From Polyangiales bacterium (GTDB lineage: Bacteria > Myxococcota_A > Polyangia > Polyangiales > JADJQN01), in assembly GCA_964202905.1 (NCBI GenBank), contig CAXNJO010000010.1, forward strand, positions 94,662 through 158,661: DNA of 64,000 nt, written 5' to 3'. Positions 60,038-63,000 of the stretch are shown here, in pieces (positions within the stretch are counted from its first letter, which is position 1; every line of letters begins with the position of its first letter). Below the pieces are notes generated by a model. It was not told where the DNA came from, searched no databases, and saw only the letters and a program-made list of their open reading frames with translations. The translations under genes were made by a program, and so were the position numbers.

Positions 60038-63000
60038 TCAAAGCGGGACGAGGCCGCTGTTGCCCGAGGGGAGTCCGCTGCTGGCCGGGGCCATGAGGTC
60101 GACCTGGGCCGCCGGCTGGCTCGCGACCCACGAGCTCGCGTCGATCGTCGCCTTGGCGACGCCAAAGGCGAACCATCCGACGGTCCCCGCGCTGATGAGC
60201 GCGGTTCCAGCGTGCACCAGCAGGGGTGAGAGGACGTCGACCATCCCGAAGGAGAGGACGGACAGCGCAATACCACCGGCGATGGCTCCCCCGATCAGGG
60301 TGTATTTGAGCGCCTTGCCCAGCGTGGACTTGCCCAAGCGGTTCCAGCCTCTGCCGATCTTCCCTCCGATGTAGCGGCCGGCCCGGGTGTTCTTGATCGC
60401 GGCCGTGATCGCCTTGCCGGCCACCTGGCTGACGACGCTCCCGATGACGCCCGCCACCAAGCCAACGGGTCCTCCCGCGAGGAAACCGATGGCCGCGGCA
60501 GCGAGGACCTTGCCCACAGCCATTGTCGTGGGGTGCTTGAGGAAGGCCTTCGCGTTGTCCTTGGTGAACCCTGCCTTGAAGCGCTGCCACTTCGTGGGAG
60601 GTACGGGGCGGTCACTCTTGACGTAGCGGTCCGAGCGCTGGCGCGTGACTTTCGGCCGCCCGCTGGCCGCTTCCCCGGCGAGCCCGAGCGGATCGATGCT
60701 GTTGCCGTAGTGGTTGGCGACGTACGCATAGCTGCTCGTCGACTCGCCGAGCCGCTCGACGCTCTCGGCGTCCACGATGTCGAACGCGGGGTCCGCGGAG
60801 GTCCAGCGCCCGATCTGCGTGTCGAGCTGGCGGTACTGGAAGGCGAGCAAGCCCGTGCTCTCGTCGGCCTCCTGACCCGTGTAGCCGTGCTCGTCCACGA
60901 AGCCGCTCTGGTGACGGAGCTCGCCGCTCGGGTAGTAGAGGCGCTCGCCGAGGACCGTGCCGTCCGCGGAGGTCGCCAGAGTCGTCGATCCGAGGTGGTC
61001 GTGATGCAGGAACGCGACATCGCCGCCGTCGAGGGCGAGCAAGCGGCGCGCGGCCCCCGAGAGCAGCCACATCGCCTTCGACGCGCCCGGCGCGCCATCC
61101 ACGATCCCGGCCTCGGTCGCGACCGACACCCACGCGTCCGCGGCGTTGATCTCGTCGTCGCCGGCGTCGAGCGGAGCGACGTCGGTGAGCACGTCGGTTT
61201 GCATCGACACGCTGCGCAAGCGCCCGAGACGCAAGTTCTGCAGGCGCGGATGGAGGTTCACCACGCCGTCCCGCACCTCGACCTCGGAGTCCACGTAGAA
61301 CGTGAGGCTGCCGTTCTCCTCGCGGGCGACGCGCCGGGCACCGAGCGCGTAGAAGAACTGCCCGCTCGAACCACCGTCGCCCGTCGCCGACACGAGACGG
61401 CCCTCGTGATCGTACGAGAGGGAGGTCGTCCCACGTCGCGTCATCCGCCCGGCCGCGTCGTACTCGTACTGCCTGTCGCCCGCCCGGCGCACCGCGTTCG
61501 GGTGCACTGAGTCGTACTCGAGGGCGCCGACGTGCGCGCGGCTGCGCGCGCCGAGGCTCGACTCCACGCTGCGCACGCGGTCGCCGACGTCGTACGTGTA
61601 GGAGAGCGTCTCTTCCTCGGCCGACGCCTCGCCGAAGGTCGCGGCACGCAGGCGGTAGAGCGCGTCGTAGGAGAAGCGCGCGGTCAGCGAAGGCCGAGTC
61701 GCCGCGCCCTCGGAGGTGTCCGTCATCGTGAGCAGGTTGCCGACACGGTCGCGCGTCATCGACGCGCCCTGAAGGACGCGGGACCCGAGGCGCGTCTCCA
61801 TCGCCTCGAGCCGGCCTGCGTCGTCGAAGCTCCGCTCGCCGCGCGTCCCGTTCGCGTAGAAGAGCGTCGCGATGCGCCCCTGCTCGTCGTAGCCGACGTC
61901 GTCGAGCACACCGGAGATCCCCGTGGGGCGCGAGCCTTGGTCGTACGTGCGATCCGTCGAGAGGCCACCCGGATGGACGGTGCGCGTCAGCCGGCCGATG
62001 GCGTCGAAGGTCCGCTGGGTCACGAAGCGCGTCCCGGCGAGGGTGCGCGCCTCGAAGACCTCGTTTCCGCGCGCGTCGTAGCCGAGCTCGTCACGTCCCG
62101 TCCCGAGCTCGCCGAGCGGGTAGCGCATGCCCACCTGACGCCGCGCGCCGTTCGTGCAGGTGCTGCAGTCGGGGTCCTCGTCGTAGAGGACCTCGGTGCG
62201 CGTCGCGGCCTCGTCGGCCTCGTCCCACTGCGCCACCAACCGACCGATTCCGTCGTACGCACCGACGGTCACGGCGCCACGAGCGTCCCTGCGCTGCAGG
62301 ACGTTCCCCGAACCGTCGTGGGTGTAGCTGATCATCCCACGGTCCGGATCGAGCACGCTCACCACGCGGCCGGCGAGATCGTAGGACTGAGCATGCTCGA
62401 CCCCATCGGGGGCGCGCGTCGACACGAGGCGACCGAGGGAGTCGTAAGCGAGGGTGGTCGTGGCGACCATCCCGCCGCCGAGGTCACGCGTCGCCGCGAC
62501 GAGGCGATCGAGACCATCGTACGTCTCGATGAGCGGCGTGTCCGCGGACGCCCCGGACGGGTCGTTGTCCTCGCCGTCGTAGCGCGCGACGCGGAGCGGT
62601 CCGTACTCCACCCGGAGCGTCGTCCGCTCACCGGCGACGCTGTCCGTGCTCTCGGTGCTCTCGGTGGCCCGGCCGAGCGCGTCGTAGGTGAACGTCTCGG
62701 AGGGGATGCTCGTCGGCGCGGTCATGTCGCAGGCGCCGCTCGTGCTGACGAACTCCTCGTAGGCCCGCACGGGCTTGCCACGACGGTTCAGGACCTCGAA
62801 GCCGGACACCTGATAGCTGCCGTCGGCGATCCGCGTGCGGGTCTGCACTTCGCGCCCCTGACCGTCGAGGCACTGCACCTCCTCGAGGTCGAGCGGCCCG
62901 CCCGTGACGCTGCGCGAGCGGGCGACGACACGCGTCACCGGCGAGGCCGTCTCGTAGGTGAACTCCTCCGAGGGGGTCGCCTCGGCGTCACCCGGCATCA

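Follow-up and report, generated by a model that had tools for sequence, protein, structure and literature searches.

The question raised by this locus is what the C-terminal end of a large RHS-repeat protein does and how it could reach a target cell. The gene lies at the end of a 64,000-nucleotide stretch of DNA (the window; assembly GCA_964202905.1, contig CAXNJO010000010.1, positions 94,662 to 158,661) from a bacterium of the order Polyangiales. A preliminary description, made from the letters alone, took it for an ordinary RHS toxin with a novel membrane-depolarising or pore-forming payload. Analysis of the locus and its relatives showed that the gene belongs to a four-gene cassette, which we judge to be a variant of the Tc/ABC toxin complexes and a larger finding than the payload. 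The payload itself, a C-terminal tail of 213 aa (the tip), is an undescribed and probably membrane-active cargo. To the reading that it is the cargo of a Tc-like device and permeabilises the membrane of a target, more likely a eukaryotic one, we give an even chance.

The main features of the gene are listed below in window positions; the part preceding the tip is called the shell.

60038..64000, minus strand: shell gene, 3' part in the window, 2070 aa as a whole, with the start beyond the window at C10:160911
60680..60937, minus strand: Rhs core autoprotease TIGR03696, residues 1772-1857, predicted cut after Leu1857
60791-60793, minus strand: candidate catalytic Asp1820
60692-60694, minus strand: candidate catalytic Asp1853, the Asp of DPLG
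60041..60679, minus strand: tip P0001, 213 aa, predicted released cargo, ~21.5 kDa, isoelectric point (pI) 10.9

The encoded protein comprises a signal peptide, SpvB (residues 60-231), FG-GAP repeats, TcdB_toxin_midN (619-760), RHS repeats, the Rhs core (1772-1857) and the tip. SpvB, FG-GAP, midN and RHS are all above the Pfam cut-offs, and the gene architecture, judged from sequence, is that of a fused TcB-TcC cage. The best PDB sequence matches of the shell are TcdB2-TccC3 fusions (E 5.7e-32), with Rhs proteins of type VI secretion (T6SS) far behind. Asp1820, which we take to be equivalent to the first TccC3 aspartate, and Asp1853 are invariant in two alignments (6 and 9 cores). The core contains the two aspartates, DxxG and a hydrophobic P1 residue (Asp1853-Pro-Leu-Gly-Leu), and the rule reported for TcC cleavage is two aspartates, DxxG and Leu as the preferred P1 (PMC7861908; here and below, statements taken from cited articles refer to the accessible parts of their texts). 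The spacer between the core aspartates is 10 residues longer than in TcC, and the Pro of PxxxxDxxG is missing, with Tyr instead, five residues before the Asp; this Pro is conserved in every TcC of Song et al. and dispensable for cleavage (PMC7861908).

The shell gene and the gene of the TcA-like lipoprotein described below are present in one copy each in the source genome. In this genome, 94.5% complete, no match to VgrG (TIGR03361) was found, while the E. coli control was found; delivery by T6SS was rejected on this ground. T6SS Rhs effectors are delivered with PAAR/VgrG and carry no Sec signal, whereas the shell has an N-terminal signal peptide. Because the shell unites a signal peptide with a TcB-TcC fusion and is encoded next to a TcA-like lipoprotein, with no VgrG match and no immunity gene, the tip is not a Tse5-type T6SS effector, and the framing as an ordinary RHS toxin overlooks the central feature of the locus.

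Three further genes follow the shell gene downstream on the minus strand, with gaps of 77 bp and 3 bp and then a 1-bp overlap.

59481..59960, minus strand: 159-aa Cys-rich lipoprotein, accessory, starting 77 bp after the tip stop
53634..59477, minus strand: 1947-aa lipoprotein, remote TcA-like subunit, with a lipobox and Cys-rich N-terminal repeats
53637..55502, minus strand: TcA-like channel and TcB-binding domain, C-terminal 622 aa, predicted fold
53637-54194, minus strand: TcB-binding-type domain, last ~186 aa of the TcA-like protein, predicted fold
49354..53634, minus strand: fourth cassette gene, Cys-rich lipoprotein, 3' end unreliable in the assembly

The large lipoprotein as a whole gave no informative family match. 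For its C-terminal 622 aa the predicted fold is that of TcA's channel and TcB-binding domain, at a sequence identity of 11-12%. The AlphaFold model of these residues, the final third of the protein, was built from 9 sequences (pLDDT, the predicted local distance difference test, 67.8; pTM, the predicted template modelling score, 0.43). Foldseek with this model gave 22 matches at E<=0.001; the 21 listed rows are all TcA subunits, and the 22nd match is a further chain of an entry already listed. The best match is the pore state of TcdA1 (E 1.7e-10, 12% identity), and the first non-Tc row stands at 0.013. In VIA-align, a second look at the Foldseek candidates, 22 Tc entries lead (Z 13.2 to 8.8), and unrelated coiled coils reach Z <=8.7. 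The alignment to TcdA1 ~2000-2516 has Z 13.2 and a root-mean-square deviation (rmsd) of 8.8-10.7 over 387-397 residues; the compact C-terminal domain aligns to the TcB-binding domain with Z 8.8 and rmsd 4.2 over 143 residues. A TcA homologue with channel and TcB-binding domain within 10 kb of the shell is recognised by predicted structure alone, not by sequence; a Pfam scan matched none of 62 TcA-like members to a Tc family, PDB sequence and profile searches with the domain returned no Tc protein. With regard to the outer shell, the neuraminidase-like and receptor-binding domains and the linker of TcA, residues 380-1325 gave no Pfam or Atlas match.

Of 301 genomes in the phylum, 38 have the TcA-like domain (35 with a strong match), as do 15 of 61 genomes of relatives, the source genome being counted in both. 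It occurs in at least 78 distinct GTDB loci (93 pattern matches, 84 confirmed, and the best 80 of the 84 taken to 78 loci), mostly from metagenome-assembled genomes (MAGs) of Myxococcota, the closest named among them belonging to Sandaracinaceae (84% identity). A shell gene lies no further than 10 kb from the TcA-like gene in 24 of 34 loci of at least 20 kb and in 40 of 78 overall, and this linkage is seen across several families. Among the open reading frames (ORFs), N-termini of the lipobox type were found in 66 of 75 for the TcA-like gene, 35 of 46 for the small gene and 40 of 52 for the fourth gene, by a crude pattern loose enough to flag 4 shells too; by a similarly crude pattern, 16 of 19 complete shells have a hydrophobic N-terminus. 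The top holders of the window DNA are lake-water metagenomes of one study, freshwater and unlabelled metagenomes holding a lower share; RNA datasets were not found among the listed holders.

These data bear on an improbable alternative, in which the shell has no need of the adjacent TcA-like protein and is a toxin of the Rhs or "TcdB/TcaC pathway" kind, exported by Sec and delivering an antibacterial ionophore like the C-terminal domain of Tse5 (Tse5-CT) or the ionophores used in contact-dependent growth inhibition (CDI). Proteins with signal peptide, SpvB, propeller and RHS form a class known to carry nuclease and peptidase tips (PMC3482391), and Tse5-CT, the C-terminus of an Rhs protein for which transmembrane and amphipathic helices are predicted, depolarises bacteria (PMC9637101); moreover, some loci have no nearby shell gene, and three nuclease-type tips adjoin candidate immunity ORFs. 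However, conservation within the shell is highest in the propeller, which would dock to TcA (87% identity to the same-genus homologue), the two genes are linked across several families, and Tse5 and the CDI ionophores have cognate membrane immunity proteins, none of which fits here.

Loci of the system differ in layout. A distant subfamily (L033-L038, L040, L041; G008, G023, G036, G040, G050) has a TcA-like lipoprotein of ~1220-1280 aa directly upstream of the shell, a minimal needle, and the shell of L036 carries an extra hydrophobic, lipobox-like insert just 5' of the core. Two or three TcA-like genes stand in tandem in L024/L058/L095, L043 and L112, and tandem shell genes bearing different tips in L027, L132 and L133. 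In L031:1311-11521 (G039) the shell gene ends before the core, an unusual place for a split, and is followed by small genes (three complete, one broken), each with its own signal-peptide-like N-terminus, last RHS strands, core and distinct tip; these look like interchangeable, separately exported cargo lids.

Around the cassette of the window, overlapping same-strand ORFs of 369 and 127 aa were rejected as alternative frames, the former being the open upstream frame of the lipoprotein, and a scan for promoters and terminators gave results at chance level. Six small indels at 50100-50700 relative to contigs of other runs (five of them common to X1 and X3, the sixth confined to X1) are probably assembly errors in the fourth gene, the frame of which also shifts relative to its same-genus homologue of 1250 aa. 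Just upstream of the shell, at C10:161241-163637 on the minus strand, an 800-codon lipoprotein-like ORF contains ~12 myxobacterial Cys-rich repeats and a C-terminal beta domain. The GC content falls from ~0.77 to ~0.70 across the cassette (50001-64000), partly as a codon-position effect of the cassette proteins, and the drop possibly reflects an older acquisition. The flanks contain an ordinary gene of S9 dipeptidyl peptidase IV (45659-48346, plus strand) and an acyl-CoA ligase-like gene.

The tips of related loci were compared as a set of 70 distinct sequences, taken from GTDB loci, 25 metagenome loci and four database proteins, with the truncated L044, the frameshifted L120 and the duplicate L122 dropped. 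They fall into 56 clusters with a median of 195 aa and 20.5 kDa (range 10.9-25.8). In 63 of the 70 the pI is at least 8; a net charge of at least +4 is found in the first 50 residues of 50 tips and in the last 50 residues of 25. This agrees in size and charge with guidance for Tc cargo, since the cages of P. luminescens take cargo of 20-35 kDa with pI>=8 (PMC6868009). The basic leader, described earlier as a feature of this payload, is also present in most unrelated tips of the system; it is thus a system trait, better read as serving translocation than as part of a toxin mechanism. Pfam cut-offs were passed in 9 of 68 tip scans (43 + 25, including P0001, the truncated tip and the duplicate), namely by RGS (two), VirD5, Peptidase_C58, Colicin_D and collagen (four); GIY-YIG fell short by 0.1 bit, and a match to GH19/lysozyme was weak. 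Homologous loci accordingly bear different payloads, several of which are, by sequence, typical of effectors directed at eukaryotes and some of antibacterial ones. Release by self-cleavage, as proposed in the preliminary description, is supported by the invariant autoprotease aspartates, the difference of tips between loci and the effector domains in sister tips.

Particular groups of sister tips are as follows. The tips L137:509-1081 and L138:315-878 pass the Pfam cut-off as RGS domains and are bacterial mimics of a G-protein regulator of eukaryotes. In L126:7571-8173, L085:4906-5532, L080:4855-5457 and L052:4964-5548 the tips are disordered and repeat a Tyr-x-x-Ile/Val/Pro motif; such repeats resemble the phosphotyrosine SH2-binding repeats of effectors. 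The shells of L085 and L080 are nearly identical, and their tips belong to separate clusters. In L053, L061, L076 and L107 a basic leader and a hydrophobic hairpin are followed by collagen triple-helix repeats; these tips belong to a 9-member cluster from MAGs of Myxococcaceae/Archangiaceae.

In the source genome the ORF ends with a stop codon at 60038-60040 of the minus strand, and D-P-L-G-L at 60694-60680 is followed by 213 residues, close to the approximately 215 aa reported after SIDPLG; all stretches quoted in that report are present. The tip contains 25 K/R against 7 D/E and is organised as follows.

60509..60679, minus strand: basic leader, tip residues 1-57, net +10, the Lys/Arg-rich stretch noticed earlier
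60416..60508, minus strand: Gly/Ala-rich hairpin free of charged residues, 31 aa, Gly-Pro turn, tip residues 58-88
60305..60415, minus strand: basic amphipathic helix, tip residues ~89-125, 10 K/R and zero D/E
60155..60304, minus strand: second hydrophobic pair, Gly/Ala-rich and uncharged, tip residues 126-147 (22 aa) and 149-175 (27 aa)

The C-terminus is a polar tail of 38 aa, with no soluble domain to display. The amphipathic helix (~89-125), absent from the helices listed earlier, has a hydrophobic moment of 0.71, and Gly-x3-Gly repeats occur in the tip. The combination of hydrophobic hairpins and an amphipathic helix corresponds to the layout of alpha-pore-forming toxin domains (colicin-like, Tse5-CT, CDI ionophores), with marginal hydrophobicity. 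Hydrophobic windows (Kyte-Doolittle 19-mers at a threshold of 1.6) number 2 in the tip and were found in 0 of 33 shell windows of equal length; the two longest uncharged runs are matched by 4.5% of 5000 shuffles of the tip's own composition. Segment 126-147 scores as insertable on a rough translocon scale with ad hoc end-weighting, similarly to the shell's own signal peptide.

In the preliminary description no motif of a nuclease, deaminase or ADP-ribosyltransferase was evident. Scans of the tip in Pfam and NCBIfam gave nothing at E<=0.1 except a domain of unknown function at 0.052, below the cut-off. A search of the ESM Atlas gave 0.84 at best, under lead level, and a PDB sequence search gave no match. 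A profile of four tips against 1.84 billion representatives returned 2 proteins, both already in the alignment, and a metagenome scan by tip pattern confirmed 0 of 593 stretches. The AlphaFold model of the tip, made from an alignment of 4 sequences, is too poor (pLDDT 44.9) to inform a fold search, in which Foldseek gave 0 matches at E<=0.001. The listed contigs of other runs span 59242-60418 without a gap, and none is listed for 60419-60680.

Detectable relatives of the tip number three: P0002, P0003 and P0010/L043, the tip of P0010 being that of L043. The L094 tip looks alike and was rejected as a homologue (hhalign probability 2%). In P0002 and P0003 the 31-aa length of the first uncharged run and its Gly-Pro turn are kept. 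Relative to the same-genus homologue, the shell is 73-87% identical, with the propeller best conserved, whereas the tip is 38% identical in the leader, 60% in the core and 21% in the tail. The nonsynonymous substitution rate (dN) is 0.54 in the tip and 0.16 in the shell (3.5x), and its ratio to the synonymous rate (dN/dS) is ~0.4 in the tip core, and the central 90 aa are under purifying selection. The GC content at third codon positions (GC3) of the tip, 0.86-0.88, is the same as in the remainder of the gene, and recent horizontal gain of the tip is for this reason unsupported. In a tree of 56 shells, built by a quick method with the 14 tips on shells of <600 aa left out, the four members of the tip family and P0004, all with multi-helix basic tips, form one clade (approximate likelihood ratio support, SH-aLRT, 99). 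The tip type is thus kept within the lineage and drifts fast, and swapping becomes visible at greater depth, besides a few close pairs. On the proposed check whether homologous loci swap the tip, they do carry different payloads, but near kin do not exchange them freely.

The same evidence bears on an explanation that we regard as improbable, in which the tip is no toxin at all and serves as a stop-transfer anchor of the shell in the producer's inner membrane, or as drifting filler giving the size and charge for loading of the cage. The insertable segment 126-147, the basic stretch after the first hydrophobic run, which fits the positive-inside rule, the dN of 3.5x the shell and the retention of the tip type within the clade all agree with it. 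Yet hydrophobic windows are missing from 41 of the 70 sister tips, so that the shell can do without an anchor; the residues of the autoprotease are preserved, effector domains can be recognised among the sister tips, and the central 90 aa are under purifying selection. Neither is the tip invariant across homologues, as the preliminary description expected of a structural anchor.

A non-lytic membrane effector with the same delivery, anchored by its hairpin as a wedge or scaffold and acting through membrane bending, the blocking of an organelle or the recruitment of host proteins, is an unlikely explanation that nevertheless deserves some weight. Hairpin effectors of the Chlamydia Inc or Tir type offer a comparison. 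Two full transmembrane helices would hardly fit into the 31-aa run; 29 of 70 sister tips contain one or more hydrophobic windows (9 of them two or more), and in the 9-member cluster the hairpin is joined to collagen-like or low-complexity tails, an arrangement that suggests display and not a pore; RGS and Tyr-rich-repeat cargo suggests manipulation of signalling. The tip of the window, however, ends in its 38-aa tail with no soluble domain for display, and peptides that permeabilise membranes typically have Gly-x3-Gly repeats and an amphipathic helix of strong positive charge.

The choice between eukaryotic and bacterial targets depends in part on immunity genes. After P0001 no room was found for such a gene, the 77-bp gap being followed by the common 159-aa lipoprotein. 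The latter, considered as an immunity protein, was rejected because it is shared by loci with unrelated tips, where it sometimes lies 5' of the shell gene; it is kept in the cassette irrespective of the tip. The gap between the tip and the next cassette gene is estimated at no more than 210 bp in 48 of the 51 tips that precede a cassette gene, and Tc loci have been reported without immunity genes (PMC7861908). No cassette gene follows 15 other tips; among 4 inspected, three nuclease-type tips adjoin a small ORF, and a Pfam scan of two of these three ORFs gave no match.

L036:8920-9279: candidate immunity ORF abutting a nuclease-type tip
L150:3759-3989: candidate immunity ORF abutting a nuclease-type tip
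L140:3843-4313: candidate immunity ORF abutting a nuclease-type tip

The absence of an immunity gene and the nature of the sister cargo favour a eukaryotic target, although immunity might also be made unnecessary by Sec export and caging.

The proposed mechanism of permeabilisation by a Tc-like device consists of five steps. The cleavable signal peptide of the shell and the lipoboxes of the other three proteins, seen in the sequence, would direct all four out by Sec. By analogy with work on TcC and Rhs proteins, the core would cut after DPLGL and keep the unfolded tip in the shell, thereby shielding the producer. As the structural model and gene linkage suggest, the shell would dock on a pentamer of the TcA-like lipoprotein at the cell surface or on vesicles. 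The basic N-terminus of the tip would enter the channel first. In the target the basic amphipathic helix may bind anionic lipid, and the two marginal hairpins may insert and oligomerise. Small alpha-pore formers are laid out in this way, with a cationic amphipathic helix flanked by two marginal, Gly-rich hairpins. Among Rhs proteins Tse5-CT offers a precedent (PMC9637101), although it has an immunity protein. Export, cleavage, docking and threading by such a device are in our view likely; insertion of the tip into a membrane is plausible; and leak or depolarisation, once the tip is delivered, is somewhat more probable than a different outcome.

A number of points weigh against this reading. 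It rests on computation, and the contact of A with BC and the pentamer are postulated. The match to TcA has 10-14% identity, comes from a long helical model with pTM 0.43 and covers the final third only; a Z of 13 is, according to the tool's own note, close to chance level for helical bundles. In 10 of the 34 long loci no shell gene lies inside 10 kb. Among shuffles of the tip (n=5000), 14% have at least two hydrophobic windows and 13% reach the same maximum; the windows being unexceptional, the helices are real yet marginal in hydrophobicity and driven by composition. No link to known pore-formers was found in sequence or fold. That the five nearest multi-helix tips fall into one shell clade means that this tip type is passed down and drifts instead of being freely exchanged. 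The pI of the cargo is reported as not critical (PMC7861908), which weakens the argument from charge, and amphipathic helices and hydrophobic patches in cargo are advised against (PMC6868009), which counts against easy passage of the tip. Finally, the immunity-like ORFs at three nuclease-type tips imply that some cargo may target bacteria.

A wider interpretation, the truth of which we consider evenly balanced, is that myxobacteria and their relatives bear a cell-surface Tc syringe of the contact type. It would combine a lipid-anchored TcA-like needle with Sec-exported, fused or modular BC cages, occur in ~1/8 of the genomes of the phylum and deliver a polymorphic arsenal (RGS mimics, a YopT-type protease, VirD5-like proteins, nucleases and membrane-inserting tips) into protists, fungi or bacteria. 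If true, this would be a new weapon of predation or against grazers; it would provide the translocator that the long-catalogued toxins with signal peptide, SpvB and RHS are missing, along with a testable answer to the entry of their tips into cells. Sequence-based Tc surveys would then miss a whole branch, the TcA-like needle being unseen by sequence. The tip would be a natural hydrophobic, membrane-active Tc cargo, of a type judged hard to translocate in engineering work; without the cassette, it is one more uncharacterised hydrophobic Rhs C-terminus.

Full-text searches of the literature listed no article on a Tc system in myxobacteria or on one anchored through a lipoprotein; such entries could exist in subscription journals, in dbTC or in supplements, which lay outside their scope. 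The main text of a genome-wide Tc survey (PMC7861908) does not contain 'myxo' and sets BC fusions aside, and the term is likewise absent, by term search, from the accessible text of a review of ABC toxins (PMC11435725). An article on teneurin-like proteins (PMC13018210) describes, in its accessible part, lipoprotein toxins of Myxococcota with a different architecture, and a preprint on polymorphic toxins (10.1101/2021.10.19.465003) mentions myxobacteria, as far as its accessible text goes, solely for outer-membrane exchange.

Among known systems, Tse5 (PA2684) of Pseudomonas aeruginosa similarly has an Rhs shell that frees a small C-terminus, in which transmembrane and amphipathic helices are predicted. 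Similarity of the shell to Tse5 is confined to the RHS repeats; Tse5 is delivered by T6SS with VgrG and has a membrane immunity protein, Tsi5, while here a signal peptide is present and neither a VgrG match nor an immunity gene was found. The alpha-helical CDI ionophores (PMC11630599) depolarise membranes, diverge fast and resemble the tip in being divergent, helical, Gly-rich and polymorphic; they differ in delivery by CdiA, an entry domain and CdiI immunity, and no sequence link to the tip was found.

The "TcdB/TcaC pathway" toxins (Zhang et al. 2012, PMC3482391), reported also from delta-proteobacteria, share with this shell the signal peptide, SpvB, integrin-like propeller, RHS repeats and variable C-terminal toxin. 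Unlike the cassette, they are described in the accessible text with no TcA-like partner named and no mention of 'TcdA'. The sole pore-forming domain defined in that text, W-TIP, has an RxxR and a W-x-[ST]-IP signature, which the tip does not contain.

The closest counterpart is the Tc/ABC complexes, represented by Photorhabdus TcdA1-TcdB2-TccC3, Xenorhabdus XptA and Yersinia YenTc. The cassette shares with them the SpvB-propeller-RHS cage, the DPxG autoprotease, hypervariable cargo of ~20 kDa, a neighbouring subunit with a predicted channel and TcB-binding fold, and loci mostly without an immunity gene. It differs in that B and C are fused and carry a Sec signal, two extra lipoproteins are present, and the A-like subunit, itself a lipoprotein, carries Cys-rich repeats and escapes Pfam, its identity being 10-14%; the host is a free-living freshwater myxobacterium. 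The Tc toxins characterised to date are soluble and directed against insects and other animals, and for classical ones lysis is the reported route of release (PMC10847048). A version exported by Sec and anchored as a lipoprotein, in myxobacterial predators of fresh water, would extend the Tc family to contact delivery and to microbial ecology.

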